DNA of 64,000 bases from Amphiscolops sp. MND2022 (GCA_964187785.1 OZ076409.1:33048001-33112000), one strand, 5' to 3'. Shown: positions 22,201 through 45,588, numbered from the stretch's first letter. Translations and numbers: made by a program. Notes: generated from the sequence alone by a model not told the origin.

Positions 22201-25200
22201 TATTTTGTGCAAATTTTCATTTTTTTTTCAGTTACTTTTTTGCCATTGGCTCGGAAAAAGCCTATATTGACACAAATAACAATTCACACCAGATAGTCCA
22301 TTTAGATTGTCAATAGGAAAGACAGTTTTTCGTTTTCCTCTTTGCTTTTTGCGTGTCGTATTTTGTTATTGATTGCAAAAAAAATCGCTGTCCTCATTTG
22401 AGGACGAACTCACTGTCGAAGTTATACAAAAATGATGGAAAACGTAGTGGGAACAACCATCCAAACGTCCTATCTTGCTTGTTTTTGGTTGCAGACGACA
22501 TTTCCATGAAAAAAACGCCTATAGGTGTTTCTCGATTTCCTCAGTGTAACCTCGACAGTACATCGAGAAGTCGAAAAGTTGACAAAATTTTGGCAAATTT
22601 TCTTCAAAGCTTCATTTCTCCACAAATGATAGCCGCAGCTCCAATCGATTTTCTGTTCCTAAAAACCCTTTACCTAAGCTTTCAAATGCACCCTTGTTAG
22701 GTCGCGAGTTGACGCCACATGTTGGGGTAAGAGGGCGATTCCGGCGGCGCGGGTCCGGAAACAACGGGCTTTTCAAATATCGGTTGAACTCATAACTAAA
22801 GCTTCATTGAAAAAATTTCTATATGCGTTTTCAATTGTTGCAAACTGTGTTACTAGACTGGGACAGTAACTTATTGAACAGTTGCTCAGTTATTGAGAAA
22901 AAACGAATTTTCTGAAATGTAATTTTTTGCATTTTGTCACTTGTTTTCAGTTACTTTTTTGCCAGGGGCTCGGAAGAAAGATTTTTGACACAAATAACAA
23001 TCCACACCAGATAGTCCATTTAGATTGTCAATAAGAAAGACAAGTTTTCGTTTTCCTCTATGCTTTTTGTGTGTCGTATTTCATTTTTGATTGCAAAAAA
23101 AAATCGATGTCCTCATTTGAGGACAAAATCACTGTCGAGGTTATACAGAAATGATGAAAAACGTAGTAGTGACCACCATCCTAACGTCCTATCTTGCTTG
23201 TTTTTGGCTGCAGACTACATTTTGATAGAAAAGACGCCAAAATTTTTTCTCGATTTCCTCAGCGTAACCTCGACAGTACATCGAGAAGTCAAAAAATCGA
23301 CAAAACTTTGGCAACATTTCTTCAAAGCTTCATTTTTCCACAAATAACAGCTGCAGCTCCAATCGGTTTTCAGTTCCTGAAAGCCCTTTACCTAAGCTTT
23401 CAAATGCACCCTAGTTAGGTCGCGAGTTGGCGCCACATGTTGGGGTAAGAGGGCCATTCCGACGGCGCGGGTCCGGCTACGACGGGCCTTTCACCTATCG
23501 CTTGAACTCATAACCAAAGCTTCATTGAATAAAACTTCAACTTGCGTTTTCAATGGTGGCAAACTGTGTTACCGGAGTGGGACAGTAACTCAGCAAGCAG
23601 TTGCTCAGTTATTGAGAAAAAAAACGAAATTTCTGAAACGTTTGTTTTGCGAATTTTTACTTTTTTTCAGTTACTTTTTTGCCAGTGGCTCGGAACAAAA
23701 ACCTATATTGACACAAGTAACAATTCCCACCAGATAGTCCATTTAGATTGTCAATAAGAAAAACAATTTTTCGTTTTCCTCTATGCTTTTTGCGTGTCGT
23801 AATTTATTATTGTTTGAGAAAAAAATCGCTGTCTTCATTTCAGCACGAAATCACTGTCAAGGTTATACAGAAATGCTGAAAAACGTAGTAGGAACCACCA
23901 TCCAAACGCCCTAATTTGCTTGTTTTTGGGTGAAGATGACATTTATGAAAAAGCTCTCATATGTTTTTTTTCGATTTCCTCAGTGTAACCTCGACAGTAC
24001 ATCGAGAAGTCGAAAAGTTGACAAAATTTTGGCAAATTTTCTTCAAAGCTTCATTTCTCCACAAATGATAGCCGCAGCTCCAATCGATTTTCTGTTCCTA
24101 AAAGCCCTTTACCTAAGCTTTCAAATGCACTCTAGTTAGGTCGCGTGTTGGCGCCACATGTTGGGGTAAGAGGGCCATTCCGGCGGCGCGGGTCCGGCTA
24201 CGCCGGGCCTTTCAACTATCGCTTGAACTCATAACCAAAGCTTCATTGAATAAAACTTCAATTTGCGTTATCAATGGTGGCAAACTGTGTTACCGGAGCG
24301 GGAGAGTAACTCAGCAAGCAGTAGCTCAGTTATTGAGAAAAAAACGAACTTTCTGAAACGTTTGTTTTGCGAATTTTCACTTTTTTCAGTTACTTTTTTG
24401 CCAGTGGCTCGGAACAAAAACCTATATTGACACAAGTAACAATTCCCACCAGATAGTCCATTTAAATTGTCAATAAGAAAGACAATTTTTCGTTTTCTTC
24501 TATGCTTTTTGCGTGTCGTAATTTATTATTGTTTGAGAAAAAAATCGCTGTGTTCATTTCAGCACGAAATCACTGTCAAGGTTATACAGAAATGCTGAAA
24601 AACGTAGTAGGAACCACCATTTAAACGCCCTAATTTGCTTGTTTTTGGGTGAAGATGACATTTATGAAAAAATTCTCATATGTTTTTTTTCGATTTCCTC
24701 AGTGTAACCTCGACAGTACATCGAGAAGTCGAAAAGTTGACAAAATTTTGGCAAATTTTCTTCAAAGCTTCATTTCTCCACAAATGATAGCCGCAACTCC
24801 AATCGATTTTCTGTTCCTAAAAGCCCTTTATCTAAACTTTCAAATGCACCCTAGTTAGGTCGCGAGTTGGCGCCACATGTTGGGGTAAGAGGGCCATTCC
24901 GGCGGCTCGGGTCCGGCTACGCCCGGCCTTTCAACTATCGCTTGAACTCATAACCAACGCTTCAATGAATAAAACTTCAATTTGCGTTTTCAATGGTGGC
25001 AAACTGTGTTACCGGAGTGGGACAGTAACTCAGCAAGCAGTTACTCAGTTATTGAGAAAAAAACGATTTTTCTGAAACGTTTGTTTTGCGACTTTTCATT
25101 TTTTTTCAGTTACCTTTTTGCCAGTGGCTCGGAACAAAAACCTATATTGACACAAGTAACAAATCACACCAGATAGTCCATTTAGATTGTCAATAAGAAA

Positions 25201-27927
25201 GACAAGGTTTCGTTTTCCTCTATGCTTTTTGTGTGTCGTATTTCATTATTGATTGCGAAAAAAAAAATCGATGTCCTCATTTGAGGACAAATTCACTGTC
25301 GAGGTTATACAGAAATGAGAAAAAACGTAGTAGGAACCACCATCCTAACGTCCTATCTTGCTTGTTTTTGGCTGCAGACGACATTTTGATAAAAAAGACG
25401 CCAAAATTTGTTCTCGATTTCCTCAGCGTAACCTCGACAGTACAACGAGAAGTCAAAAAATTGACAAAACTTTGGCAACATTTCTTCAAAGCTTCATTTT
25501 TCCACAAATAACAGCTGCAGCTCCAATCGGTTTTCAGTTCCTGAAAGCCCTTTACCTAAGCTTTCAAATGCATCCTAGTTAGGTCGCGAGTTGGGGCAAC
25601 ATGTTGGAATAAGAGGGCCATTCTGGCGGCGCGGGTCCGGCTACGCCGGGCCTTTCAACTATCGCTTGAACTCATAACCAAAGCTTCATTGAATAAAACT
25701 TCAATTTGCGTTTTCAATGGTGGCAAACTGTGTTACCGGAGTGGGACAGTAACTCAGCAAGCAGTTGCTCAGTTATTGAGAAAAAAACGAATTTTCTGAA
25801 ACGTTTCTTTTGCGAATTTTTACTTTTTTTCAGTTACTTTTTTGCCAGTGGCTCGGAACAAAAACCTATATTGACACAAGTAACAATTCACACGAGATAG
25901 TCCACTTAGATTGTCAATAAGAAAGACAATTTTTCGTTTTCCTCTATGCTTTTTGCGTGTCGTAATTTATTATTGTTTGAGAAAAAAATCGCTGTCTTCA
26001 TTTTAGCACGAAATCACTGTCAAGGTTATACAGAAATGCGGAAAAACGTAGTAGGAACAACCATCCAAACGCCCTAATTTGCTTGTTTTTGGGTGAAGAT
26101 GACATTTATGAAAAAACTCTCATATGTTTTTTTTCGATTTCCTCAGTTTAGCCTCGACAGTACACCGAGAAGTCAAAAAATTGACAAATTTTTGGCAAAA
26201 TTTCTTCAAAGTTTCCTTTCTCCACGAATAATAGCCACAGCACCAATCGGTGTTCTGCTCCTGAAAGCCTTTTACCTAAGCTTTCAAATACACACTTGTT
26301 AGATTGCGAGTTAGCGCCACTTGTTGGGGTGAGAGCGCCACTCTGGCGGCGCGGGTCCGGCTACAACGGGCTTTTCAAATATCGGTTGAACTCATAACTA
26401 AAGCTTCATTGAAAAAATTTCTATATGCGTTTTCAATCGTTGCAAACTGTTACTAGACTGGGACAGTAACTTATTGAACAGTTGCTCAGTTATTGAGAAA
26501 AAACGATTTTTCTGAAATGTATTTTTTTGCAATTTGTCACTTGTTTTCAGTTATTTTTTTGCCAGGGGCTCGGAAGAAATATTTTTGACACAAATAACAA
26601 TTCACACCAGATAGTCCATTTAGATTGTCAATAAGAAAGACAAGGTTTCGTTTTCCTCTATGCTTTTTGTGTGTCGTATTTCATTATTGATTGCGAAAAA
26701 AAAATCGATGTCCTCAGTTGAGGACAAAATCACTGTCGAGGTTATACAGAAATGATGAAAAACGTAGTAGGAACCACCATCCTAACAACCTATCTTGCTT
26801 GTTTTTGGCTGCAGACGACATTTTGATGAAAAAGACGCCAAATTTTATTCTCGATTTCCTCACCGTAACCTCGACCGTACATCGGAAGTCAAAAAATTGA
26901 CAAAACTTTGGCAACATTTCTTCAAAGTTTCATTTTTCCACAAATAACAGCTGCAGCTCCAATCGGTTTGCTGTTCCTGAAAGCCCTTTACCTAAGCTCT
27001 AAAATGCACACTAGTTGGGTCGCGAGTTGGCGCCAATTGTTGGGTTAAAAGCGCCACTCCGTCGGGGCAGGCACGGCTGCGCCGGACCTTTCAAATATCG
27101 GTTGAACTCATAGCTAAAGCTTCGTTGAAAAAACTTCTATATGAGTTTTCAAGGGTGGCAAACTGTGTTACTAGACTGGGACAGTAACTTAGCAAACAGT
27201 TGCTCAGTTATTGAGGAAAAAACGAAATTTCTGAAAGGTACCCTTTTGCAATTTTTCACGTTTTTTCAGTTTTTTTGCCAGTGGCTCGCAAAAAAATCTG
27301 TATTGACACAAATAACAATTCACACCAGATAGTCCATTAGATTTTCAATAAAAAAGACAATTTTTGGTTTTCCTCTATGCTTTTCCCGTGTCGTAATTTT
27401 CTATGGACGTTTCAAGTATCGGTTGAACTCATAACTAAAGCTTCATTGAAAAAACTTCTAAATGCGTTTTCAGTGGTTGCAAGCTGTGTTACTAAAGTGG
27501 GACAGTAAATTAGCTCAGCAAACAGTTGTTCAGTTATCGAGAAAAAAACAAATTTTCTGAACTGTACTTTTTTGAATTTTTTCACTTTTTCCAGTTATTT
27601 TTTTGTCAGTGGCACGGAAAAAAATCTAAATTGACACAAATAACAATTCACACCAGATAGTGCACTAGATTGTCAATAAAAAACACAAATTTTTGTTTTC
27701 CTCTATGCTTTTTGCGTGTCGTAATTTTTTATTGATTGCAAAAAATCGCTGTCCTCATTTAATAACGAAATCACCGTCGAGGTTATACAGAAATTGTAAA
27801 AAATGTAGTAGGAACCACCATCCAAGCGTCCTACTTTGCTTGTTTTTGGCTGCAGACGACATTTTCAGGACAAAGAACGCGAATAAGTTTATTCGATTTC
27901 CTCAGTGTAACCTCGACAGTACACCGA
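10245..27927 (+). repeat. tandem satellite array, ~720-bp monomer (roughly 25 copies, some deleted)
   Basis: The landmark GTTAGGTCGCGAGTTGGCGCC recurs about every 720 bp (e.g. ~18400, 19120, 19845, 20525, 21245, 21975, 22695, 23415, 24135, 24855, 25580, 26300, 27015). Confidence 0.97.
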
Positions 27928-27950
27928 CATTACGATACACATCCCGGTAA
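27928..27950 (+). repeat. left terminal inverted repeat
   Basis: CATTACGATACACATCCCGGTAA, directly at the satellite junction. Confidence 0.85.
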
Positions 27951-29240
27951 AATGGATTTCAGTCACGCAGGGTAATCTGTGTAATCCGTAAAATGGTCAT
28001 TCAGCGTAAGTTAGTCAAGACAGTCTTTGCCTGGACGGTGTAGCGGTATCAACGCGCGTATTGGAAAATAGTGTAAACTAGTCAACGCACGTAGTTAGTG
28101 AAAAGTGGAAGTTAGTCCAAAAATACGTGAACTTCCTCAAGAGAGAAATGGTCAATATGTTTGTGCTGTGACTGACGGAAACAAGTACAAATTTAGGAAT
28201 GTTTTAAAGTTTGATGAGTTCGAGAAAAAAAGTGATGACTTCCTATTTTACACCTGTTCACCCGTTTTGGATAAATGCTTTCGATGTTCTGAAAGAAAGT
28301 TTTTTCACAGAACCTAGAGAGTTGACTTTGCAAGAAGTAACACAGTCATTTTTTTTACCATTCACAAGGGAAAAAACAATTGAACGTTACCAGAGTTTGT
28401 GAGAACTTTCAAAACAAAATGAAAGCAGCCCACAGGAAGCCAAAAAAGAAGACTGGTCAACAAGCCAACTCTAACACTTGATGCAACTGTAAGTTCAACA
28501 GTGGAAGTGATCTCGCATGCAACCAAAACTCCACCAACCAACGCCCCCAATTCTGATTCAGCAGCTCGGAGACAGTTGAAGCAAGTAGAGATGACTACGA
28601 TGTTCCCGATTCCAAAAAAGCAACTGTTCTATTCCAGAGATAGTTTTGCCAGCATCAATTCAGGAAGTTAAATCTTTGTCTCTGCCATGAGCACAGCTGA
28701 AACTTTTTATTGATCCTTTTTGCTTTCCGTTCGTCCACCAAACTTTTTGAACAATTTGGACTTTAACTCCTACAAAACTCCACTAGAGTAGATATTGTAT
28801 GGTCTTTTTCAGGTGAAAAAAATTCTTTCCTCCAAATAGTCCAGAGGACACTATTCCTACAGCGGCCCAATGCAGCAAAAAAGTATGAGATTTTACTAGA
28901 CTGTGTCTAATACTAGTAGTCGGGAAAATTTTTAAATCAAAGTATTGTTTATACTATCTTGTCCTTCTTGAAACAACTTTCCGATTTCAAAGTCAACTGA
29001 TTTTATATTTTCAACTCTATTTATTGTGATATCATATTTCAACATAAATTCAACTGAAAACAACTGATTTTTAATATAGTTTGTTTACGTAAGACAGTAA
29101 TTTTTCTTATTTACAAGATGATACGTATGACACTAGTGGAGTCTCTCATAAATTTAGAAATTTTTTTGGGACTTCAAAAGAAGTTTAAGTTTTTGAAAGA
29201 GGTTTCGAGTTTTTTTATCTCTGGGCCTAATGCTTTTTCG

Positions 29241-29280
29241 CATAACGAGACAACTCGGTGAAATGGATTTCAGTCACGCA
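29241..29280 (+). repeat. internal degenerate copy of the left terminus
   Basis: CATAACGAGACAACTCGGTGAAATGGATTTCAGTCACGCA versus the terminal CATTACGATACACATCCCGGTAAAATGGATTTCAGTCACGCA. Confidence 0.85.
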
Positions 29281-30459
29281 ACTGTTTTATACAGGACGTT
29301 TCAAAAAGTCTGTGAGTTTTGGATTTTTTGCAAAAATGAAGTCAAATTTAACTAATTTTTTTTCAAACCCAAACCAAACTTCTGGTCGTATAAAAGTAGG
29401 TTCTGATCCTTTGAGGCATATCAAGGCAGTTTGTAATTTGTTTTTTTTTCTCCTAGTCACTTCTACGATCCACTTCTGGTGGCTATCATATCTTTTGAAA
29501 ATGTTTTCTTAATCATTGCAGCAAGTATCGTTGTTTTTGTGATTTGTTTCTGGCTCCTTGCTTAAACAGGTTTTGTATTTGAGGCATATCAAAATGATAC
29601 AAAAACCAATCATCACTCAACGTGGCATCAACTACGTGAAACCTATTTTTCTGAACGTCTTGTTTCCGAGTTTGTTCCAGCGAGAAAGCAATGACTGTCT
29701 TCTTCCCAATGATCGCAGGAAGGCCACAGATTTCCTCAAGAAGCATTTAAAAGATTTATTTTGTACTTTCTTTTTTTCAAGCAAAAACATAACTAGAGAT
29801 TGAAAACGGAATTATCCAAAACATGATTGTGAGATATAAAGAATGCACTTAAACATTGCATTCTAGGTGATTGTTTGTGGCACGTTTTGATTCATGATTG
29901 TTGCAGGACTGAACGTAAACTTCACTGATGGATTCAAGTGAAGGTGTGCTATAAAAGCCCCATGGATTCAAAGAAAGGTGTGCTTTGTTGCAAGAAGACG
30001 CATTCGATTCATTGGTAATATCTTCACCCCCATCATTGATTCCCTGGACGACTTAAAGATTTGTCTATATATGGCTATTTTTCTTTCGCCCAATCCAGAC
30101 TAAACCTCTTTTTCGACATTTGACACTACTTTTTCACAACAGTCATCCTTGCAAGGATCACCCTCGACTGTGGAAACAGGCGTTCCGCTGCAGAATCTTT
30201 GGAGGCCTTCTATCAAAACTATATCGGAATCAAAAATTGCATTGGGTCACTTTATTGAAACTCTCAAGCGTTTTTCACAAGTCAAACCTTCAACAAGAAA
30301 AAACACCTTAGTTCATAAACTTTTTTTCTGAAAACCATTTTTTTTCTGCCAAACTTGTTTTGCCTTGAAACAGAAGACATTCAAATGGAGATTCAATGCC
30401 TACTTACTCTCAGTAATCCGCATGATCTTCTAGTCAAAAGAGGTTGACTGTTACAATGC

Positions 30460-32290
30460 TCTTTCATCAAAGCAACCATTCCCCCTTCGAGACGTGAACT
30501 CCAAGCAATCACATGTAAATTGAACAAAAATTTCAGATCAATACTCACTCCCAGAGAACCCCCGCTGTGTTCCTTGTAAATCTTGTTACATTTGTCAGAT
30601 TCGTTGCCTACAGTTTGTATAACAAGACCAGCTCAGTCGGCTTGAGGGTCGACCTTTATGGAGATGCATTTTCTCGGGGGAAAAAGACGTCGTACGAATG
30701 GCCTTCCGAATTTGCAAAGCGGCATCGAAACTGAGCAATCCGCAACTCATGTATTAACGTTTGCTCTTTTTGAAGTGAGTCGTTCAAGTTTTACTCTGAA
30801 AATTCGAAACTTGATTTCTATTGTGAGTTTTATCAAATTGTTTCTCGAGAACCTAATTTTGGTCCCTGTTGTGAGCTACACCTAATAGTTTAGGGAACGC
30901 AAATCTAAACTGGTTCCCTGTCGTTAGGTACACTTAAATGATTAATAAGTTGTTGGAACACAAAACAAATTTGGTCAGTCGTGCGCAGCAGTTGATTGTT
31001 TTGTTGATTTAATACCAAATTTTTCCCTGTTGTGAAAAACTTGAAGTTGAAACATGAATTGGAGTATTTTCCATGGTGAAGATGTGCGAATCAACCTGAA
31101 ATACAACCTCGCCATGTCAGAAGTGCTTGGAAGGCCTGGATGGTCATACAACGTAACAAAGGCCTTACATGACGAAAGTCCTATACAGAGTTGTTCGGGT
31201 GATTCACCATTCCAACTACGTCTTTTGAAAGGTGTTAGCAGTGATGTTTCTTGTCTGTCAAAGATGTGTCAAGGATGCCGCAGATATTCCGAATCCACCA
31301 CTGAAACAAACAAAAAAGGACATCGCTGAATATAAGAGAGAAATGGAAGGAAAGGGGTGATTCTTCCGTCAACTGTCGATTATGCTACTGGTCGAAGAAC
31401 AGAGTTGATCATTGACATCAACGAATGCATCCCAAAGAATTCTCTCTTTTTTCTCAAATCCACTTTCAATACATGTCCTGATCTGCTGCATATGGTTGTT
31501 CGTTCAGTCGAAAGTGACTTGAAGTTAGTTACATGTGGACTCACTGTTGCTGTTGAAAGACCATGCAGCAATATCTAGGCTCGAATGTAACATAAGGTAA
31601 GGAAATGTGAAACCGCCGAGATTCAAGTTTGAGATAGTTGAAAACCCTTGCAAGGCTGTATCTCTCTGTTTCAGCGACGCCGTGGTCGTTATATCCAATC
31701 TGCAACAGAATCAGCAACTATGGCCAATCAGACTGCCCAATTTTTGAAGGCGTGTGTTCATTCGAAAAACATCATGTCTACAAAGCTGACCAAACAATCT
31801 GTACAACGTCTGATAACGTACAGGTATCATTGGTTGATTTGGTTGATTTGGGTTGGAGGCACCTTTCATAAAAGGAGTGGGCAATTCTGTTCGGAAACTG
31901 GCTGACCTTCAATTCCGATCTCTTTATCAGTTTTTTTGATTTGATTCTACAGAGAGAATTCAGACTTTCCAATGTGTAAAAATCTCTAGGATTTAATATC
32001 AGTCAACTTTATGTTTTTTCGGTGATCGTGCGTTGACGCTATACAAATTGAAATTGGATTTATTACTCAGAATTTGTGAGAAGGGAGAGCTTCTGTCTCC
32101 ATTTTTTTACATGACAGAAGGAACTGAAAAAAGTCACCACACGGCAGCCAAAGACTACAATACGAAGACAATGCGTGATGGTGGTAACGATGCTTGGAAC
32201 ATGTCATCCAGTTATCTCAATATTCACCTTTCCTTCTACAGTGCAATTAGTTTTTGTTCTGCGACACTTGAATCTTACCGGAAGTTGTAA
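30460..32290 (+). pseudogene. RAG1/Transib-like DDE transposase core (intron-containing, frameshifted)
   Basis: Motifs in the expected order: IPPSRRELQAITCKLN; VDLYGD(30663)AFSRG...VVRMAFRI; EQSATHVLTFALFE | GT donor 30775 | GED; SGD(31201)SPFQLRLL followed by CQGC; CPDLLHMVVRSVE; LTLYKLKL...FYMTEGTE(32126)KSHH...Y..KT..DGG. The last parallels the RAG1 SEGNE region. Confidence 0.75.
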
Positions 32291-32420
32291 GGAAAAACAA
32301 ATATTATCTTGAAAATTGCCGTGAACCCTTTCCAGAACCCGAACTTGATTATTTTAGAACTGAAGACATGTTTAGAGGTCCGATATGACATGCATGTACT
32401 GCATACTCATAGGTAATGAC

Positions 32421-32726
32421 ATGCATTTTGTCGTTCTTGGAAAATATGGCCACCTGTAAAAAACTCAAGCGATTCTTGGAAAGAAGATCACAGAAAACGG
32501 AGGAAATGTTGTTTCGTATGAAGATAACATCATTGCTGACCTTTTTGAGCCATCGTTATTGCTTGTTACCAAATCGAAATTGTATCGATGCATTCGTTAA
32601 TGGTCAACCAAGTAAAAAAAGCAACAAAAACCCGTTCCAATACGATACTTGAACGCTGAATTTGTAGTCGCCTGAGTGTAGAAGAAGGCCTTGATTGATC
32701 CCAAAGGTTATGTGTTCGAAGTAGAT
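32421..32726 (+). pseudogene. BRCT-like domain downstream of the transposase core
   Basis: Hand translation: MHFVVLGKYGHL*KTQAILGKKITENGGNVV..., then LNAEFVVA*V*KKALIDPKGYVF. These match the typical BRCT beta1/alpha1-GG and C-terminal patterns. Confidence 0.65.
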
Positions 32727-32915
32727 CAGTCTGCGAGAGCCAAATTCAAAACAATGAAGTACATATCTGTGGCCCCGCGATTACAACGTCAATCAAACCC
32801 CTACGACATGGTTCATTAACTTACCATACAGCAATGCGGAAATACAAGAATACAAGAACACACTAAAAACGGCGGCCCTGAAGTGAAAAGTAGACGACGT
32901 TTAATACCGACTGAA

Positions 32916-33222
32916 TTCAGTGCAGATCTAAAACTTACTCATTTTATCAGACAAGGTACCTTTAACCGCCTAATTATCATTTCAGTGCAGATCTAAAATT
33001 TACTTTTTCCATCAGGCAAGGTCCTTTTGACCGCTTCTTTATCATTTCAGTGCAGATCTAAAACTACCTTGTCTTATCAGACAAGGTCCCTTTGACCGCT
33101 TCATTATCATTTCAGTGCAGCTCTAAAACTTACCAATTTTATCAGATAAGGTCCCTTTGACGGCATAATTGTCATTTCAGTGCATATCTAAAACTTATGA
33201 ATTATGTAATTTCAGTGCAGAT
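32916..33222 (+). repeat. 65-bp tandem minisatellite (~4.5 copies) inside the transposon
   Basis: TTCAGTGCA starts at 32916, 32981, 33046, 33111 and 33176 (exact 65-bp period), with a partial unit at 33211. Confidence 0.95.
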
Positions 33223-34481
33223 TCAGAAAAAATTTTTTCTTTCAGACAGGTTCACTAATAATCGCAGTTCAATTTATTTTTTCATAGTATATCTTTTCGC
33301 CGTGACGCAACCTATTTTTTCATAGTTTATCTTTTTGCTGTGACGTTTTCTCTGAAAATTCCTTCAGTCGAAGTTTTGATCCCCTTCGAGAGCGCAATTT
33401 TTGCATTCATCAAGTTGACATTCCCTCTGTAACCTTACTTACTTTTGAATGATCTACGACAGCTGCGCGTGAATGATTTATGAGGAGTTGTGACTTCCTG
33501 GAATAGTGTGACTTGTTGTGAGTTGTTGAATGTATATAGTTGACTATCATTTCATAGTTTGTTTCATACGATATCGAATGGAGTACTCATGAGTGACTTC
33601 CTGGATTTTTTTCACTTGATATCAAATGGCAACACTGCCGACTACGCCATCAACGTCTCATCGAAAGACACCAGAGAAAGTCTCCTGCGGCCGAGAGTCG
33701 ATCACCAGAAAGATTTCAAAAAACAATAGTTTTTCTGATCAAGCTGTAACAATTTGCTAATTTCTTCCACGGAAGAGTTTAATCTGACGTATGGAATTCC
33801 TTTTAGGCACTTGTGACGTTTTGGACCAACTGTCCAACATCCTACGCCACTGCAAAGTCTGTCCCCGAATGCCACGGTAGTAGTTCAAGCTCATGGGGAG
33901 AAAGTGCCAGCTCTTCGGCCAGATCATTTTCGCCAAAAAGCTACTGAAGAAGCACTACATTACAAAGTATTGTAAGGAGCTGCAAAAGCGGAAAGCAGAA
34001 GGCCTGCCTACCCGAATGTACCAATACGGTTAGTCATTACCATGTATATTAGATTTTTACCTACTTGTGAACACTTTGAAGTGTTCAGTGTATCATGTCC
34101 AAAAAGATAAGGAAACTCAATGATGTTGCTTTTGAAAAAAAGTCGCGCTTTCAAACAAAAGGTGTGTTTAAATTCTCGTAAGTTGTATGTTACAGCAGCT
34201 CAAAAGGCTTGAAGCGGAAGCCTAACTTATGCTACGGCAGAAAATGCGGCAAGTCATATGTTTACCCTTTTGACTTGCGCGTACACTTTTTGAAAAATCC
34301 TCAAGGCCTGTAAGGAGCGAATGTGCGCGACTTTCGTAAAATACATGGAACAACTGCAATTTGATCCCTGTCGTGAGCTTGTTTTCCAACTTGTCTATTA
34401 AATGCATTTGAACTATTCTAACGAGTAGAAAGTTGTCTGCCTTACTCCCGTCTTAGTCATTTAATGAGCATTTCATTTCAG

Positions 34482-35210
34482 AGTCGCGGACATCCAGACA
34501 TCCTCAGTCTGAATGAGTTCAAGCAGGAACTCATCAACGCGGACAGAAGCAGCGTTTACTATCATTTATTCGCTATAGACATCGGCATGCGGTCAAATGT
34601 AAATAAGGGGCTCTTTTGATGGAGAACGCAAATTCACTGGAAATTTTCTTCTCTGATTTTCCCCATCCTCCTGTTTAGTGGCCTAAAAACTGGACTTCTA
34701 CTGGAGGATTCTACTCAACATAATGCACATTGTTTTGAAACAACTTCTTCAACGTAAATTGATTTTTTGGCTTTTCAGTCCATCTACAGCGTGCCAACGA
34801 TGATAAAAAAAGGTCGTCAGTGAACCACCTTGTGGATGAGCTGGTCAGTAAGTCAGAAGAACCGTTCTCAGTAGCAACTTCATACTACTTGCTGATCTCC
34901 AACGATGGTTGTCAAACAACTTGGCACACGGACTTCAGTTCAACATCTGTCTTTTATACATTCTTGACTGGGTCCAAGACCTTCTTTCTGGTTGCACCAT
35001 GCAGTCCTCACTCCGTGGAGAGGGACGAATTTCCTTTCAGAAGGCCACTCGAATCAGATCAAGAAGGCAATCATTGAAGAAGACTCTTTCAGGGATCATG
35101 AGAAGTTTCCGGGCATGTTGGAAATGCTAGCCATTTTGATGCTCCGGACCTCCTCCGACTTCACATGGTCATTGAGAATCGATATCAAGAAAGTGAAGCC
35201 GTTGCTGTGA
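34482..35210 (+). pseudogene. JmjC histone-demethylase domain, KDM2/KDM7(PHF8)-type, spliced and decayed
   Basis: Exon 34482-34598 (LSLNEFKQEL...YHLFAIDIG), GT-AG intron 34599-34778, then YYLLISNDGCQTTWHTDFSSTSVFYTFLTGSKTFFLVAP (HxD). After a deletion/frameshift: HAVLTP...GTNFL...EKFPGM. Family consensus for comparison: YCLMSV.GCYTDFH.DFGGTSVWYH...G.K.F.LIPP and HAV.TP......GGNFL. Confidence 0.88.
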
Positions 35211-35441
35211 GATCCATTTTTTATCCAAGTTCACATTCGTTTCGAATTAAACTAGTGATCGAATTTAGTATTGTATAATGAAGCCGTAATGTGACTCACG
35301 ACAGTAATCAAAATCAAATTTTGAACAATTATGACGTTGTGACTCACAACAGTAACCAAATTTGAAATAGGTAGTCAACAAAGTTGATAAAATAACATAG
35401 TGAATTATCACGAGTTTTTTTCACACTTGCCCAGAATTCAG

Positions 35442-35586
35442 CAAGGAGAGACTCGTCCACAAAATTTGCTTGCGGAAAGACTTCGTAAACGATATTTGTG
35501 TGACAGCGTTCACGGAGAGGGCCTCAAAAAAGGCCTATTTTGTTTGCCCCAAGCCTTGCTTCAGAAGAAGGAGAACTGGGATATGA
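35442..35586 (+). pseudogene. possible PHD-finger exon (C-terminal half) following the JmjC domain
   Basis: After an AG at 35441 the frame reads KERLVHKICL...YFVCPKPC...stop. This resembles the HxxC...CPxC half of PHD fingers such as that of KDM2. Confidence 0.5.
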
Positions 35587-35999
35587 ACGAAGACGGCGTG
35601 AGGGTCTCGAAGGAAGCAAATTCTGAGGAGCACCTCACTTTTTTTCTGAAGACCTGATGTTGACGAACCGAATTGTGATGTTTTTATCAGCTATGAGGAA
35701 GCCATCACGTATGTTCTTCCACGACCGTCACAAACTGTCAGAGGGTTGCACAAAGTGCCAAAAAGAAGAACCTTCGTTCAAGAGCGTGCTAAGTTTGTTT
35801 ACCATCCGAGTAACATTCTTGTTGATTCGTTTTAATTTATATAAAGGTAATGTAAATGATAATATTCAACTCGAAACTGGTCACCTCGTTAAACATCTTA
35901 CATTTGATGTTTTTCTTTCTTCGAAAAGACTTCAAAATTAAATTAATGGAGTGTTAATCGAAGTCAATGTTATTGTTTCAGAATTCAGACCATCCACTG

Positions 36000-38344
36000 A
36001 TCGTTACGTTGTTTCGATCATTAGCCATCCTGTCCCTGCCTGCATACAGTTGTGCTACTTAACATGTTGAACTTTGTGGTCTCCGAGTTTTTTGTTGTGC
36101 TCAGTAAAATGTACACTGTGGCTCGATTTACAACAATTGAATGGCATTTCGTTATCGTTAAGTAAAGCACGCATAAACCATTACACGAAAAAACACGATC
36201 GAAGTCTATTTCTGATCTCTTCAACGGAATTTGCATCTTTCCACTTTGCCACCAACTTGAAGTTTGAGAAAAAAACGCTCTGGAGTCTCGAAGGACCGTC
36301 AATGACTCGAAAGTTCTTCGTAGTAATTTTTGTTGAAACATTCAGCAACTTTTTACAGCAAAGTCCAATGACGCAATAGTCAAATTAAAATGTCTTATTT
36401 CATTGATAACTTCACCGTGAAAAGTCCGTTGTTGACCATTATTCAAATGTTAGGTTACTTTTCATTTATTACGTTAATGTGTACAATTTACCTTCAATTT
36501 GTGGTGCATTTGTACAGCCTTGATCTTTTGTAAGTTTGTAACCTTCTGGATTGTACCTTTTTGTGTTTTGGACAATTACTGTCGGAATTGTCGAGTAGTT
36601 GTTTCCAAAAAAAGAGGAACATCTACCGTCGGGAATATTGGGTGGTTGTATCCAAAAAAGTTGTCAACTACTGTCCAAATCAATTTTTGATGGCCGACGG
36701 AAATCATCGGTTCATCGAATAGGAGTTTCCAATTAACTTTCAGAACAAGACGAGTCTGAACAAGACAAGCAAAATCCTCTTTGTTAAGGAGAATAACAGG
36801 TTTTTAGGCTGTTTGATTACAAACAGGAGTGTGTAATGTCGGAGATGAATCAATTCTAGAAACCACTAGTTTGTTAAAAAACTCTGCGACGAAGCAAACA
36901 AAAAACGAGCTCATGTTTAGGTAATTTACAGTGTTCTCGAGGAAATATAAATTGTCAGATTGGGTTTGTTCGGGAGAATTTAATGTGAAAACTATGCATA
37001 ATATTTCGAAAACAGTTGATAACTTTCGAAATCGAAGTTTGTCTCTAGATTCAATAGCTTTGTGTTAGTTGAAGCAAAGACTTGGCTACAAACTGTTGAT
37101 AAATCAGTCAGAGAATAGAAAAACGATGAAAGGTCCCAATTTTACACAGAATCAGCTGTCTGTAAGTACAATTTTTGTCTAAAAGTTTTCCAAATTGAAC
37201 TAATCTAAACTAGAAGAAATTTTGAAGATACGTTTCTTTCTGACAATTTTCCAAATTTTTCCAGAAAAAATCGAGCCTGAAAGTGCTCGGGGGATGTTTT
37301 CTTAATCACAGTACTGTAGCTCTCAACCAATGAAATGAACGTGTGGGTCTCAAGTAGCCAATGATATTTGTTTGTTCGTTCCGGCTGCCCTATTGTTCTT
37401 CAAAAGTCGATCAAATCACTTGACTCCAATTGTTGTTTGTTATGTTTGCTATCGAATATAGACTCAAATTGTTTCAATTATTTTTGAGAATCAACAGAAG
37501 TACAGGTACTTTTTGAAAATCGTCGTGTATTATTCAGTATTCTTTTTTTCTTACGATGTGTTTTCAGAAAAAAAAAACGAGTTTCGATGAATATTGTATT
37601 TTGAATACAAAATTAGCACCACCTTAAAATTAATACAAAAATGGCACCATCTTCCTTATTTATAATGAAATGTGAACATTCTGAACTGTTTGGTGAAGAA
37701 AATCACAAGAAAATGATATTTGAAAACAACAATTTATCTCTTGAAGATCAAATAAACAATGAGTTTTGAAATTTTAATGTTTTAGAAATACTTGACTTCT
37801 CTGTTGAAAATTTCGTTGAAATCATTTCAACTAAACTTTGGGTCCCTCGGACAATATTTTAGCCTGAGCAGGCATCCTTGTTTCCTGCAGTGAGGGCACT
37901 TGACCCAAATGGCAGTTTCCCTGTAAATGACAGAGGTCCTTATTTTCGAACGACATGTTGGTTGAGTTTCCTTTTTCAAAATCTGTAACCAAGTGTGTTT
38001 CAAAGATTCCAGGATCACACAAAAGTGAAGAACACGCCTCAAAAAATTTATCACTGACAGGAATATGTGAAAACAGCTTCGATAACAGTTTTTAAAAGCA
38101 AGCTTATGTTAAACTTACCTCCCAACCACTTTGATCCAGGCTTGACAGCACTGATCGCAAATCGCGTGTTCATCATGGAGAATCCAAACGGAGGAATAGA
38201 CATTGTTTTCACAGATGGCGCAGAGCATTTCCAGATGGTTAATATGGCGGTGGATATTATGTTTTTTAAAATTATATCAGTCTTGTCGCACGGTTGTTTG
38301 GAGGTCGAATGGTCAAAACAACCGGCCCGGTACATATAGAACAC
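36000..38344 (-). pseudogene. possible third, convergently oriented gene remnant, product unknown
   Basis: Long minus-strand reading frames with only one or two stops at ~36000-36380 and ~36490-36914, plus ORFs 37827-38054 and 38051-38344. No domain recognised. Confidence 0.3.
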
Positions 38345-39567
38345 ATAGTAAAAGGAAATATTTGAACTTCAATCTGTCAGTATCTTTTATTTCTATGTAC
38401 GAACAAGTTGCCTTACTTCATGACTTGACAACCTGCAAGTCCTTTTAATCTTTTCACTAAAGTAACCACCTAATAAATTTAGAAACTCTGTACCACCTAT
38501 TAATTGGTTAGTAAACGAACGCGGTACTGCGGTAGTGATATGGAAGAGTCATCTTGTTTATCATCTTATTTTGAAACAAACAACAGTATTCCATGTGATT
38601 TCTTCAATGTTCCTTTTTCCTGCAACCTCCAGTCAATATGTCCGTGGACAGGTCTCAACAATATTTGCTAAACTATCTTTCAATGGTCAGGGTATTTTGA
38701 TCGATGGTATTTACAGAATTTTGATCCCTGTCGTGAGCAACATCAGGAAAAATTACAAATAGTCTATACGAAGTTGAAACTTTATCAAACTGAAAACAAT
38801 AGTTTAAGGATTACTAACCATGAAATATGGAACTAAAAACGAAGTTTGTATCATGTGCTTTATTATCCCTCACATAAACAATGTTTCTTATCCAACAACA
38901 ACCACCCATTTAAGTCCCCCCAAAGAAAAGAAAGTAGGTCACTAATCCAAGGTGAGCATTATAAACAAAGCATGTTAACAAACCTTAAATTTTTTGAACC
39001 TGAAAACAAAACTTGGTTTTACTGATAAAATTAAATTCAATACAAATCATGAAACAATGAACTGATTACAAATACTTACACTGACAGTAAAACTACGTAT
39101 GTACGCATAATCTAAACGGGCGATTGATTGGTCATCAATTTATTGAAATTGGTAATTTTGGCGCCTGTCGTCAGCACTTCAATTAGCACTGCCAGTGTCT
39201 ATTCACTAGTACTACTAATATTATTACTACTAATGTATTAAGATTAACTGATTGATACTGTGTATGCGAATCAAGCAGTGTAGTTATGAGTCGGTCGGTG
39301 TTACTCACCAGAAAGACCCGTAATTACCAAAACTATGTGTAAATATGAGATGCACAGTGTGGTAGACAAATTGCGTAGACACGATGACCGGTGTAAACTA
39401 GTCAATTACTGTAATTTTCGATGGCGTAAACTGGTTAACTTACAAAGCTGTGTCAACTAGTGTAACGTCCTATCAATGAGTGTAATGTGTGACAAGTGTA
39501 AAACTTCCAAAAAAACATTCGCGTTCTGATTGGACAAAAATCGGACTAGCGGGATCCTGCTAGTTCG

Positions 39568-39590
39568 TTACCGCGATATGTCCCCTAATG
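39568..39590 (-). repeat. right terminal inverted repeat, preceded by a subterminal hairpin at 39545-39564
   Basis: TTACCGCGATATGTCCCCTAATG at the junction; ACTAGCGGGATCCTGCTAGT is a near-palindrome. Confidence 0.85.
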
Positions 39591-39967
39591 AAGAAGTCGA
39601 AAAATTGAGAAAATTTTAGCAAAATTTCTTCAAAGCTTCATTTCTCCACAAAAAAGCTGCAGCTCCAATCAATTTTTTGTTTCTGAAAGCCCTTTGTCGA
39701 AACTCTTAAATGCACACTAGTTAGGTCGCGAGTTGGTGCCACTTTTTGAGGTGAGAGCACCATCCCGGCGGCGCTGGTCCGGCTTCGCAGGGCCTTTCAA
39801 ATATCGGTTGAACTCACAACTAATGCTCCATTGAAAGAAAATTCTATATGCGTTTTTAATGGTGGCAAACTTTGGTACTATAGTGGGACAGTAACTTAGC
39901 AAACAGTTGCTCAGTTATTGAGGAGAAACAAATTTTCTGAGATGTTTTTTGCTTTTTTTCACTTTTT

Positions 39968-40037
39968 CATTACAATACACATGCCGCAAAGAACTAGCAA
40001 GATATTGCTAGTTCGTTGCGGCATATGTATTGTAATG
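39968..40037. mobile_element. 70-bp palindromic MITE with CATTA...TAATG ends
   Basis: 33-bp arms match at 31/33 around a 4-bp spacer. Inserted in a satellite T-run that now totals 9 T versus the usual 6-7, consistent with a TT duplication. The ends resemble those of 27928-39590. Confidence 0.9.
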
Positions 40038-43000
40038 TTTTCAGGTACTTTTTGCCAAGTGGCTCGAAAAAAATCTATATTGACACAAATATTAATTCCC
40101 ATCAGATAGTCCATTAGATTGTCAATAAGAAAGACAACTTTTAGTTCGTTTTCCTCTATGCTTTCTGCGTGTCGTAATTTATTATTGATAGCGAAAAAAA
40201 TCGCTGTCCTCATTTGAGGACAAAATCACTGCCGAGGTTATACAGAAGTGATAAAAAACGAAGTAGGAACTACCATCCAAACGTCCTAACTTGCTTGTTT
40301 TTGGCTGCAGACGACATTTTCTTTTAAAAAAGCCAACAAGTTTTTTTTTTCGAATCCCTCAGTATAGCCTCGACAGTACACCGAGAAGTCGAAAAGTTGA
40401 CAAAGTTCTGGCGAATTTTCTTCAAAGCTTCAATTCTCCACAAATAATAGCTACAGCTACAAGCGATTTTCTGTTCTCTGTTCCTGAAAGCCCTTTAGAT
40501 AAGCTTTCAAATGCACATTAGTTCGGTCGCGAGTTGCCGCCACTTGTTTGTGTAACAGTGCAACTACGGCGGCGCGGGTATCGCTGCGCAGGGCCTTTCA
40601 AATACCGGTTGAACTCAAAACCAAAGCTGCATTGAAATAAAACTTCGGTATGCGTTTTCAATGGTGGCAAACTGTGTTACTAGATTGGAACAGTGACTCA
40701 GCAAGCAGTTGATCAGTTTTTGAGAAAAAACGAATTTTCTGAATTGTACTTTTTTGCATTTGTTCACTTTTTTCCAGTTACTTGTTTGCCAGTGGCTCGG
40801 AAAACATCTATAGCGACACAGATAACAATTCACACCAGATAGTCCATTAGATTGTAAATAAGAAAGACATTTTTTTGTTTTCCTCCAAGCTTTTTGCGTG
40901 TCGTAATTTTCTATTGATTGCGAAGAAAACCGCTGTCCTCATTCGAGGACGAAATCACTGTCGAGGTTTAGAGAAAGGACGAAAAACGTAGCAGGAACCA
41001 CCATCCAAACGCCCTAACTTGCTTGTTTTTGGTTGCAGACGACATTTTCAGAAAAATAATGCCAACAATTTTTTTCTCGATTTCCTCAGGATAACCTCGA
41101 GAGTACACCGAGAAGTCTGAAAATTGAACAAAATTCTGGCAAATATTCTTCGAAGCTTCTTTTCTACACACTTAATAGCAGCAGCTACAATCGAATTTTT
41201 GTTCCTGAACGCCCTCTACCTAAAATTTCAAATGCGCATTATTAAGTAATTGAGTTGGCGCCACTTGTTGGGGTAAGAGCGCCGCTCCGGCGCCGCGGGT
41301 ACGGCTACTCCGGGCTTTTCAATTATCGGTTGAACTCACAAATAAAGCTTCATTGAAAGAAACTTCTATATGCGTTGTCAATGGTAGCAAACTGTGTTAC
41401 TAGAGTGGGACAGTAGCTTAGCAAACAGTTGATCAGTTATTGAGAAAAAAAACGAATTTTCTGAATTGTACTTCTTTGCAATTTTTCATTTTTTCAGTTA
41501 CTTTTTGCCAGTGGCTCGGAAAAACATCTATATTGACGCAAATAACAATTCACATCTCATAGTCCTTTAGATTGTCAATAAGAGAGTTAATTTTTCGTTT
41601 TCCTCCAAGCTTTTTAGTTGTCGTAATTTTATATTGATTGCGAAAAAAATCGCTGTCCTCATTTGAGGACGAAATCACCGCCAAGGATATACAGAAATGA
41701 TGAAAAACGTAGTAGGAACCACCATCCAAACGTCCTAACGTGCTTGTTTGTGGCTGCAAACGACCATTTCAGGAAAAAAAGCGCAAATAAGTTTTTTCGA
41801 TTTCCACTGTATAACATCGACAGTACACCGAGAAGTCGAAAAAGTGACAAAATTCCGGCAAATTTTCGTCCTTTACCTAAGTTTTCAAATGCACATTAGT
41901 TAGGTCGCGAGTTCGCGCCACTTGTTGGGGTAAGAGAGCCACTCCGGCGGCGCGGGTCCGGCTGCGCAGGGCCTTTCAAATATCGGTTGAACTCATATAT
42001 AAATCTTCATTGAAAAACTTATATATGCGAGTTCATTGGTGGCAAATGGTGTTACTAGAGTGGGACAGTAACTTAGGAAACAGTTGCTCAGTTATTGAGA
42101 AAAAACGAATTTCATGAAATCAACTTTTTTGCAATTTTCACTTTTTTTTCAGTTACTTTTTTGCCAGTGGCTCGGAAAAAAACTTATAATGACACAAATA
42201 GTTAATCACACCAGATAGTCCATTCGATTGTCATTAAGAAAGACATTTTTTTTGTTTTATTCTATGCTTTTTGCTTGTCGTAATTTATTATTGATTGCGG
42301 AAAAAAATCACTGTCCTCGTTTGAGGACAAACTCACTGTCGAGGTTATACAGAAATGTTGAAAAACATAGTAGGAACCACAATCCAAACGTTCTAACCTG
42401 CTTGTTTTTGGCTTCAGACAACATTTTCATGAAAATACCGCCAATATTTTTTTTCGATTTCCTCAGAATAACCTCGACAGTACACCGAGAAGGCTGAAAA
42501 TTGACAAAATTCTGTGCAAAATTTCTTCGAAGCTTCATTTCGCCACAAATAATAGCCGAAGCTACAATCGATTCTCTGTTCCTGGAAGCCCTTTACCTAA
42601 GCTTTCAAATGCACATTAGTTAGGCATTGAGTTGGCACCACTTGTTGGGGTAAGAGCGCCACTCCGGCGGCGCGGGTCCGGCTGCGCAGGGCCTTTCAAA
42701 TATCGGTTGAACTCATAACTTAAGCTTCATTGAAACAAATTTCTATTTGCGTTGTCAAGGGTGGCAAAATGTGTTACTAGAGTGGGACAGTAATTTAGCA
42801 AATAGTTGCTCAGTTGTTGAGAAAAAACGTTTTTTATGAAATGTACGTTTTTGCAATTTTTCACTTTTTTTCAGTTACTTTTTTGCCAGTGGCTCGGAAA
42901 AAACCTATATTGACACAAATAACTATTCACTTCAGATATTCCATTAGATTGTCAATGAGAAAGACATTTTTTCGTTTTCCTCTATGCTTTTTGCGTGTCG

Positions 43001-44782
43001 TAATTTGTTATTGATTGCGAAAAAAAATCGCTGTCATCATTTGAGGACAAAATTACTGTCGAGGTTAAACAGAAGTGATGAAAAACGCAGTAGGAACCAC
43101 CATCCAAACGTCCTAACTTGCTTGTTTTTGGCTGTAGACAATATTTTCATGAAAATAACGCCAATACGTTTTTTTTCGATTTTCTCAGAATAACCTCGAC
43201 AGTACACCGAGAAGGCAAAAAATGACAAAATTCTGGCAAAAGTTCCTCGAAGATTCATTTCTCCACAAATAATAGCCGCAGCTACAATCGATTCTCTATT
43301 CCTGAAAGCCCTCTTTCTAAGCTATCGAACGCACATTAGTTAGGTATTGAGTTGGCGCCACTTGCTGGGGTAAGAGCGCCACTCGGGCGGCGCGGGTCCG
43401 GCTGCGCAGGGCCTTTCAAATTTCGGTTGAACTCATAACTAAAACCTCATTGAAAAAAACTTCTATATGGGTTTTCCAATGGCAAACTGTTACTACATTG
43501 GGACAGTAATTTAGCAAACAGTTGCTCAGTTTTTGAGAAAAAAGAATTTTGTGAATTGTACTTTTTTTGCAATTTTTCACTTTTTGGATACTTTTTTGCC
43601 AGTTGCTCGGAAAAAAACTTATACTGACACAAATAATACTTCACACCAGATAGTCCATTCGAATGGTAATAAGAAAGACATTTTTTCGTTTTCCTCTATG
43701 CTTTTTGCGTGTCGTAATTTATTATTGATTGCAAAAAAAATCGCAGTCCTCATTTGAGGACAAAATCACTGTCGAGGTTATACAGGAAAGATGGAAAACG
43801 TAGTAGGAACCACCATCCATAACTAAAGTTTTTTTTGAAAAAAACTTCCATATGCAATTTCATTGGTGGCAAACTGTGTTACCAGAGTGGGACAGTAACT
43901 TGGCAAACAGTTGCTAAGTTATTGAGAAAAAAACCAGTTTCCTGAAACCAATTTTTTTGCATTTTTTCTTTTTTTTCAGTTACATTTTTGCCAGTGGCTC
44001 TGAAAAAAATCTATATTGACACAAAAAACAATTCACACCAGATAGTCTATTAGATTTTCAATAAGAAAGACATTTTTTCGTTTTTCTCTATGCTTTTTGC
44101 GTGTCGTAATTTAATTTTGATGGCGAAAAAAATCGCTGTCCTCGTTTGAGGACAAAATCACTGTCGAGGTTATACAGAAATGATGAAAAACGTAGTAGGA
44201 ACCAGCATCCATAACCAAAGCTTTTTTGAAAAAAACTTCTATATGCGTTGTCAATGGTGGCAAACTGTGTTACTAGAGTGGGACAGTAACTCAGCAAACA
44301 GTTGCTCAGTTTTTGAGAAAAAACGAATTTTATGAAAGATACTTTTTTGCAATTTTTCACCTTTTTTCAGTTACTTTTTTGCCAGTGGCTCGGAAAAAAA
44401 CCTATATTGACACAAATAATACTTCACACCAGATAGTCCATTCGAATGGTAATCAGAAAGACATTTTTTCGTTTTCCTCTATGCTTTTTGCGTGTCGTAA
44501 TTTATTATTGATTGCAAAAAAAATCGCAGTCCTCATTTGAGGACAAAATCACTGTCGAAGTTATTCAGAAATGATGAAAAACTTAGTAGGAACCACCATC
44601 GATAACTAAAGTTTTATTGAAAAAACTTCTATATTCGATTTCATTGGTGGCAAACTGTGTTACCATAGTGGGACACTAACTTGGCAAACAGTTGCTTAGT
44701 TGTTGTGAAAAAAAACGAATTTCCTGAAATCACCTTTTTTGCACTTTTTCACTTTTCTTAGTGGCTCGGAAAAAAACTATAA

Positions 44783-45588
44783 TGTTGGCGCCAGTCATCT
44801 GCGAGATCAGAAACTCAAATTCGAACGTGACTGATGAAACTTACAACTCAAAACACTTAGAAACTTTGTTAAGATTCGAGTTGGAAAATTACAGGTTTCA
44901 GCAGCAATATGCCTGAGGGAAAAACACCACTTCCCTTATTGAGAAGCACTTGTCCAATGACCCTGAAACTTAGCATGCATATACAAGAGGTGCTAACTCA
45001 ATTTTTCACTCGAACCACCCTACCTTGTATCTCCCCTGGGTTCAGAGCAATTAACACCCAAAGTGACCTAGGTCGGACCCCATGAAAACCCAATTTTGAT
45101 GTAGTAATAATTATGTGATTTTCTCATTTGACCTTGAAGGAAATGTAACTCCGTTGACATTTATTATATTTACATTGTGTAAACATACTTTCTAGCCCAC
45201 CTAACCAACATGCCAAAACCACCACATAGTTTGTTTACATAGCCAAAACTTCATTTTATGCTTTAAATGTCTTTGATTTATTCAACATATTTCAACTGAT
45301 ATTTGCTTATATTTACTGTAGAATTGTAAACTACTTTTATACCATTATTAGATAGAGATTTTTTTCACTGAATAGCTATAGTCAAGTTGGGTCTTAGGAT
45401 CCAACTCAGTGCAAAGAGGAATCGCAGGAGATTTCTACGGGTCACATCGGACCCACCAGCTAAAAGATACAGTCCTTTAAAACAAGAAAACCAGGATTTG
45501 TTTAGTGACGGTCCACAGCACTAAGCAACGGATCAGGGAGGCGTAAAGTTTGTCAAGCGTCAGCGCAGGATAAGGGCAAGAAGATACA
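44783..45588 (+). repeat. 5' LTR (806 bp, with an internal deletion)
   Basis: TGTTGGCGCCAGTCA...GATACA. Homologous to 50150-51108 but lacks ~140 bp near 45399. Confidence 0.92.

Follow-up and report, generated by a model that had tools for sequence, protein, structure and literature searches.

A decayed insertion in a satellite array of Amphiscolops and its probable transposon family, with a RAG1-like predicted transposase fold and linked JmjC and SET genes

We analysed a stretch of 64,000 nucleotides from Amphiscolops sp. MND2022 (GCA_964187785.1 OZ076409.1:33048001-33112000; hereafter the window), in which positions 27928-39590 interrupt a satellite array. With moderate confidence, we read this segment as an old and dead copy, shortened by internal deletions, from a family of autonomous cut-and-paste DNA transposons. 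The family probably consists of autonomous transposons with a RAG1-fold transposase that also encode a SET protein and a JmjC protein, chromatin enzymes that would act on the family's own copies. Because the window copy is heavily decayed, we used its relatives for gene content; the window copy itself is ordinary debris, and the interest lies in the relatives.

The satellite has a monomer of ~720 bp, which holds a 328/391-bp sub-repeat and whose copies are about 80-85% alike, and it occupies about 10200-27927 and 39591-44800 of the window and occurs again near 51650. The left flank of the element ends in ...caccGA and the right flank begins with AAgaagtcg, and uninterrupted monomers read caccGAgaagtcg, with a single GA. 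An empty site, reconstructed by joining 150 bp from either flank with one of the two duplicated dinucleotides taken out, was spanned without interruption by 40 of 54 window matches. Since this join is matched in intact monomers, 27928-39590 is a single in-phase insertion that split one monomer, as the initial annotation had claimed for this clean 11.66-kb segment. Comparison of the flanks with intact monomers places a 2-bp target duplication at the insertion, GA on the left (27926-27927) and AA on the right (39591-39592), which carries one later mismatch (GA vs AA).

The ends of the segment, initially described as imperfect terminal inverted repeats, are real ends of a family. Searches of the same genome (host assembly, 1.07 Gb, eukaryotic) gave 1,472 candidates for the left terminus and 1,247 for the right. 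The left terminal region (27928-28126, + strand), which is common to a non-autonomous family resembling miniature inverted-repeat transposable elements (MITEs), matches other loci from base 1 over all 199 bases at 94-96% identity (40 places scored among the candidates), and it opens with an inverted repeat, CATTACGATACACATCCCGGTAA (27928-27950, + strand), identical to the repeat of short derivatives. At the other end, the right terminal region (38630-39590, + strand) matches to the last base, with 81-88% identity over 791 bases (38800-39590), and closes with the imperfect right inverted repeat at 39568-39590 (...TTACCGCGATATGTCCCCTAATG). Where a locus has both left and right ends, it is a short derivative (543-1,507 bp), and the 23-bp inverted repeat (CATTAC...GTAATG) is found in four complete short derivatives, in the window element and in a separate 70-bp palindromic MITE at 39968-40037, which has the same terminal repeats and TT/TT flanks and lies in the next satellite monomer rightward. 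Genome-wide, the 23-mer with at most 2 mismatches occurs 777 times in forward and 781 times in reverse orientation (1,558 in all), compared to 0 and 0 for a reversed-pattern control. The target duplication is 2 bp in all six elements examined, exact in four and with one mismatch in two (flanking dinucleotides TA/TA, AT/AT, GA/GA, TT/TT, GT/TT and GA/AA).

Searches with the interior of the element found 239 candidate relatives for 30000-32400 and 191 for 34300-36000, and collinearity of three relatives with the window extends from about 28127 up to about 38640-38790 (a query of the full 11.7 kb yielded only 4 scored candidates). Copy counts and gene linkage refer to this genome, by coordinates among the scored places. 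An intact 617-residue open reading frame (ORF) of the transposase (P0001) was scored at 71 places among 1,072 candidates, all at 99% identity or more and 67 of the 71 without a stop; JmjC exon 2 was scored at 150 places among 1,159 candidates (139 without a stop), and SET at 150 places among 849 candidates (131 without a stop). We found that 71 of 71 scored transposase places are followed on the same strand by JmjC exon 2, at a modal distance of 2,927 bp downstream, and that 70 of 71 have SET upstream, at 2,057-2,099 bp, with the sole miss on contig C1090 (this count compared 98 of the 150 scored SET places). Older lineages, 15-20% diverged in DNA, also carry JmjC, and in at least six older JmjC copies the canonical right terminus closes the element 3.5-4 kb downstream of JmjC (C3:5833, C1:4016 and four on C303). 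JmjC is constant in the family, keeps a fixed spacing in the young copies sampled, and is not a separate nested element.

In the window, the JmjC gene (34705-35829, + strand) survives as three exon remnants (34705-34999, 34980-35221 and 35416-35829), with WHTDF at 34922-34936. A deletion of about 380 bp at 34999/35010 has taken away the end of exon 1 together with the start of exon 2, and the N-terminal exon of the gene is missing. A Pfam search of 115 stop-to-stop ORFs of the window gave only a sub-threshold JmjC/Cupin_8 match (34763-35074, E = 0.0016). The same search also gave a weak RING match on the strand opposite to the element genes. Exon 1 of an intact copy from contig C7 matches PHF8 (E = 5.2e-10) and KDM2A (1.1e-9), and also KDM7 and PHF2, with WHTDF on the HxD ligands, and exon 2 matches KDM2A (2.5e-5), with YIHTV aligned to the distal His; single JmjC exons each score below the Pfam cut-off. 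The alignment of intact relatives keeps the HxD...H iron ligands and a Lys aligned to the 2-oxoglutarate contact. These matches uphold the split, KDM2/KDM7-like JmjC domain of the initial annotation. A word-index protein search with exon 1 ('longer' lengths) found no homologue. The gene is multi-exon in the intact copy, where further exons lie on either side, one N-terminal, one C-terminal and two zinc-finger-like; every exon pair can be joined in frame at GT-AG sites, but such joins are many and so are not decisive.

The window retains remnants of the two zinc-finger-like exons upstream of JmjC, at 33791-34030 and 34194-34325 (33791-34325, + strand; 81% and 75% identity by TBLASTN), and these C2H2/C2HC-like exons have weak Pfam zf-C2H2 scores in a relative (E = 0.014-0.039). 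They are probably what had been called a PHD-like exon, a call we could not sustain: a C4HC3 pattern scan was empty in both the window element and a 20-kb intact relative, and the + strand ORFs of at least 50 residues in that relative gave no Pfam match to PHD, F-box or CXXC, a search that short exons could escape.

A SET gene was absent from the initially annotated gene list, which the intact relatives extend: they carry one upstream of the transposase on the same strand, as a single exon (Pfam SET, 41.3 bits; cut-off 22.4). Among solved structures it comes nearest to KMT5A/SETD8 (E = 8.7e-7 over 116 residues), and we found 20 SET homologues, reaching down to 45% identity; the 10 that were aligned are strongly conserved, and conservation of the SET proteins holds down to 47% identity. 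The usual SET cofactor motif is NH(S); this position reads NY in nine of 10 aligned homologues and NF in one (alignment A2, P0159-P0173), and the ELxYDY position reads ELCFDY in all 10. The SET homologues also share a conserved N-terminal region (NDHLRYKLV...RNRGW.D.ARIVD), which has no known family match. A SET query found no match in the window by TBLASTN, and a deletion scar at 28890-28987 (+ strand; positions 4423/5470 of the C7 relative) lies where relatives carry ~1 kb with the SET gene. With SET, part of JmjC and its 5' region lost, the window copy cannot function, and its many stops and several deletions agree with its original description as decayed.

We considered that JmjC and SET might be captured pieces of host genes that are carried passively (transduplication, as in Pack-MULEs). 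Transposons often capture host fragments, the window JmjC is broken, and some pairs of decayed copies give ratios of nonsynonymous to synonymous substitution (dN/dS) of 0.9-1.1. We nevertheless regard passive capture as very improbable, given the fixed linkage (71 of 71 places for JmjC, 70 of 71 for SET), the presence of JmjC in lineages 15-20% apart, the retained catalytic ligands and the conservation of the SET proteins. For JmjC, the median dN/dS was 0.53 (range 0.29-1.11; 90 defined of 91 pairs), with 80 pairs below 0.7 and 89 below 1, in pairs that are non-independent and in which selection acting on source copies is mixed with post-insertion neutral decay (Nei-Gojobori; about 250-360 codons from the three JmjC exons in 14 copies, with gap and stop codons skipped, and with L023 left out as the same locus as C3). 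Bootstrap intervals excluded 1 in six of six pairs tested. The ratio was about 0.4 for distant pairs of transposase exon 2 and 0.29-0.33 for SET (87-96 codons, three pairs), leaving out loci that duplicate C7, C8 or C3. Purifying selection on JmjC is similar to that on the transposase. Thus, because of its fixed linkage and the purifying selection on it, we conclude that JmjC is a conserved gene of the element and not a neutral fragment captured once.

The transposase is represented in the window by two exon remnants on the + strand. Exon 1 (29891-30775) holds the first catalytic Asp motif, VDLYGDA, at 30648-30668 (located by TBLASTN, motif coordinates and columns D263/D267 of alignment A1). 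Exon 2 (31051-32901; TBLASTN against P0001) has many stops, and holds SGDSPF (31195-31212), CPDxxHxxxRxVExD (31474-31521), MTEGTEKSHH (32111-32140) and, at about 32410-32740, a BRCT part; the DDE-transposase motifs initially reported on this strand are therefore real. In intact copies, P0001 is preceded by an ORF of 283-317 residues (P0002), and proteins of 978-1,301 residues from metagenome or ENA contigs (3-11 kb) align to both of them as one uninterrupted chain. For this reason, we conclude that the transposase is encoded here by two exons and ends at the P0001 stop, which gives a protein of about 900 residues with BRCT at its C-terminus. HMMER found 205 representatives of transposase homologues at E ≤ 0.001, 61 of them at E ≤ 1e-30, and the word-index search ('longer' lengths) found one homologue. 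The conserved columns of a 28-sequence alignment (A1) are DxWGD, SGDxPF, PDxxHxxxRxxExD and HxxExxExxxH...MRxGG; no Cys column reaches 80% in this alignment, and the only conserved His are H464, H669 and H679.

The likeness of this transposase to RAG1 and Transib lies in the predicted fold. No Pfam family, including RAG1, matched the transposase core in 16 long homologues or in the 28 alignment members (E up to 10); the family profile found neither RAG1 nor Transib among all PDB sequences, and an Atlas feature search gave RAG1 clusters at 0.79-0.81 only, which is lead level. An AlphaFold model of P0013 was built on the 28-sequence alignment (predicted local distance difference test score, pLDDT, 77.6; predicted template modelling score, pTM, 0.76). 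With this model, Foldseek returned RAG1 first (E = 2.3e-6), followed by HzTransib (3.9e-4), BbRAGL, the amphioxus RAG1-like protein (2.2e-3), and the P element (0.022). Residues 156-726 of the model align to RAG1 458-1008 with Z 14.3 over 420 residues (VIA-align; root-mean-square deviation 4.6), and the model aligns to Helicoverpa Transib with Z 12.8 (410 of 480 residues) and to BbRAGL with Z 12.0. The predicted DDE residues occur in the expected order in model and alignment, with a long helical insert before the Glu. We conclude that, as modelled, the catalytic core shares the overall RAG1/Transib architecture. Thus, the RAG1/Transib-like label of the initial annotation holds for the fold; judged on sequence, target duplication, termini and zinc motifs, the element does not belong to Transib.

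The BRCT-like domain noted at the outset is also a feature of the family. The Pfam BRCT match is weak in the relative closest to the window (E = 1e-4; 23 bits, below the cut-off of 27.3), but BRCT_2 is matched in 14 of the 28 alignment members (best E = 1.6e-6), and residues 769-902 of the model align to XRCC1 BRCT with Z 10.4 over 96 of 99 residues (VIA-align). Among the 16 long homologues, four have a Pfam BRCT match at E ≤ 0.01.

As to what these genes might do, we favour a reading in which the element would express its own predicted histone-methylation enzymes, and these would alter chromatin at its own copies. The JmjC protein would most likely remove repressive methyl marks (H3K9me/H4K20me type, KDM7-like), which would keep the element transcribed and accessible to its own transposase, and this could help a family that lands in satellite heterochromatin. 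We infer this anti-silencing role by analogy with VANDAL and with the TET/JBP- and SET-bearing transposons, together with the known activities of KDM7 and KDM2 enzymes.

A repair-linked role is a serious rival, suggested by the combination of BRCT with a SETD8-like/PHF8-like pairing, although we judge it unlikely. Cut-and-paste excision leaves a double-strand break, and BRCT and the chromatin genes could serve break repair or transposition chemistry by shaping chromatin and recruiting end-joining factors at donor or target sites. The BRCT kept in half of the alignment members is best matched by those of the repair proteins XRCC1, 53BP1, BRCA1 and MDC1, and the family profile weakly matches the BRCT of DNA ligase IV (E = 0.14). 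Moreover, SET is nearest to KMT5A/SETD8, the nearest relatives of JmjC include PHF8, and SETD8-type enzymes write, and PHF8-type enzymes erase, H4K20me1, a mark linked to 53BP1. On the other hand, substrate specificity is unreadable from 30-40% identity, the active-site motif of SET is atypical, and BRCT domains have many partners.

We also considered that the accessory proteins might steer integration, by reading or marking chromatin such as satellite heterochromatin and tethering the transposase to it (compare the PHD of RAG2 and the chromodomains of retrotransposons). The window copy and the 70-bp derivative sit in the same satellite array, and zinc-finger-like exons precede JmjC. We think such steering improbable: siting in the satellite is known from two elements, the sampled derivatives sit in unrelated flanks, family copies are spread over all 13 large contigs, and the catalytic residues, which a pure tether would not need, are kept.

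Several observations weigh against our reading of an autonomous family that acts on its own chromatin. In the stretches examined, we came upon no further autonomous copy that has both canonical termini. The junction between left end and interior (28126/28127) is unique to the window, covered by none of the 39 other scored matches, and, upstream of the homologue of 28127-28677, identity among young copies stays at 93-99% over more than another 7 kb. A G5A5/G5A6 run in transposase exon 1 (window 30678-30694; loci L010-L020) leaves six of 11 inspected copies in frame and shifts five, the window copy included, out of frame, which could be real decay, a homopolymer error of assembly, or slippage. 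The mixed, non-independent pairs behind the dN/dS ratios count here as well, and since the young copies are 98-99% identical, their intact frames say little about selection. The SET protein may not be a standard methyltransferase, because its NH(S) position reads NY or NF, and a writer paired with an eraser does not map simply onto anti-silencing. Finally, the gene models are predictions, and transcription of the genes is presumed.

The observations on the ends raise the alternative that the genes are part of something larger, a mobile or duplicating unit of at least 25 kb with other ends, in which the CATTAC-ended element would be one portion; the young copies would then have spread by a different mechanism, and the window copy would be a secondary product. 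In the other autonomous copies, about 1.5-1.8 kb of extra sequence precede the homologue of 28127-28677, with a reversed left-end fragment beyond; young copies hold a 150-bp direct left-end fragment internally, and neither a canonical left end nor a canonical right end was seen in the stretches of them that we examined. The C7 locus (G000:C7:15034300-15056499; L037, L038, L066) is a 25,098-bp head-to-tail duplication, whose unit contains an internal 1,462-bp tandem duplication (99.9% identical) as well as a reversed 47-bp and a direct 92-bp left-end fragment. At G000:C303:78000-148000, JmjC matches and canonical right ends come back about every 16 kb, and these distances alone suggest a head-to-tail array of full-length elements, in which the right end is followed directly by the next left part. 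All of this could fit a larger unit, but we hold that alternative to be highly improbable: the window copy shows that a repeat-bounded unit with transposase and JmjC has transposed with a 2-bp duplication, the older JmjC copies with the canonical right terminus number at least six, and ends unseen in the stretches examined are not evidence of absence. Perfect 23-mers in the matching orientation (G000:C3:81233465 and G000:C3:58360999) precede two autonomous copies, at 7.1 kb and 16.4 kb upstream, and these may be the missing left ends or unrelated MITEs.

Of the three grounds for refutation set out at the start, two fall away, as JmjC is neither a one-off captured fragment nor a separate element; the third, that other copies with these inverted repeats lack JmjC, is answered in part, since the stretches examined held no second autonomous copy with both ends. 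For the window copy, the best reading is that it derives from a longer element by deletion, and the young lineage possibly reaches at least 25 kb. More tentatively, and with considerable doubt, we suggest a lineage that is active now or was so very recently and is possibly giant (at least 25 kb), which would combine a RAG1-fold, zinc-site-less, BRCT-tailed transposase from an unnamed branch of the RAG1/Transib-CACTA assemblage with its own SET/JmjC writer/eraser pair, rewriting chromatin at its copies or at breaks.

The element has three further features. The remnant of an upstream ORF lies at 28147-28668 (+ strand, 3 stops; 52% identity by TBLASTN, E = 3e-43) and corresponds to 325 residues in an intact relative; it has no Pfam or PDB sequence match, gave Atlas leads only, and its single-sequence fold was poor (pLDDT 39). 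A remnant of another conserved ORF lies at 36561-36797 (+ strand; 60% identity by TBLASTN, E = 5e-28). Downstream of the transposase stop is a 65-bp tandem repeat with 4.3 copies (32916-33197), which is present in relatives too and is longer in the C3 relative than in the window element.

Outside the element, strand composition is strongly skewed, in opposite directions, at 2000-8500 and 46000-50000 of the window (AT skew about -0.2 and +0.25), a 78-79-bp repeat is present both at 2425-2572 and at 8277-8425, and a 24-bp tandem repeat lies at 45729-45909. We rejected the 2-8 kb and 46-50 kb segments as related elements, as they have no mutual similarity and their ORFs of at least 150 residues have no Pfam match.

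If the more tentative reading of a recently active lineage is correct, this would be the first DNA transposon that bears a histone demethylase. Transposons known to have epigenetic enzymes come mostly from plants, fungi and oomycetes, and either affect DNA methylation or bear a SET domain; a family with JmjC and SET, linked in each copy sampled and under selection, would extend the arms race to histone methylation in an animal genome, and its dozens of near-identical intact copies are material for direct tests. In addition, a RAG1/Transib-fold enzyme with another duplication size, no zinc sites and a repair-type BRCT bears on the diversification of the RAG1 core.

Among known transposases, RAG1, Transib and ProtoRAG give the best structural match over the whole modelled core. 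Transib has a 5-bp target duplication and heptamer-like termini, whereas this family has a 2-bp duplication and CATTAC termini; furthermore, the family lacks sequence-level similarity to RAG1/Transib and the conserved Cys of the zinc site, and it adds a C-terminal BRCT and two chromatin genes. ISL2EU and Tc1/mariner elements also give 2-bp target duplications, but we rejected both, as no such Pfam transposase domain is present and the fold is RAG1-like. [quoted passage not shown] The same source gives 2-3 bp duplications and CATCA..TGATG ends for PlavakaB (PMC12730594). By that description, the family has the CA..TG ends and falls within the duplication range, but lacks the C(2)C and H(3-4)H motifs, and neither the 16 long homologues nor the 28 alignment members match the Pfam families of CACTA or Plavaka. 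The family is RAG1/Transib-like in fold and CMCT-like in its ends, and is not a demonstrated member of any named superfamily.

Among chromatin enzymes, KDM7/PHF8/PHF2 and KDM2A are the closest solved sequences to both JmjC exons, with the ligands kept. KDM7 has a PHD finger, of which the C4HC3 scan found none in the JmjC gene of this family, and KDM2 has F-box, CXXC and leucine-rich-repeat (LRR) domains, none of which was detected; zinc-finger-like exons stand in front instead. The SET protein differs from KMT5A/SETD8 (PR-Set7), its closest solved relative, by NY/NF and ELCFDY. Both JmjC and TET/JBP proteins are Fe(II)/2-oxoglutarate dioxygenases. The combination of genes had been thought new, and we found no report of a transposon-encoded JmjC, nor a relevant one of a BRCT-bearing transposase, in the literature searched, which left aside subscription journals and Repbase Reports. 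The general idea, however, is not new, because transposon-encoded regulators of the SET, TET/JBP and VANC types have been described, and are proposed to counteract silencing: SET in HarbingerS and Phytophthora MuDR, TET/JBP dioxygenases in fungal KDZ, Plavaka, EnSpm and Helitron families, and VANC in plant VANDAL (PMC12730594). Like the elements covered there, this family is a mobile element with its own modifier of chromatin or DNA marks; it differs from them in joining, in an animal genome, a JmjC eraser of the histone-demethylase type and a SET protein to a BRCT-bearing transposase of predicted RAG1 fold.

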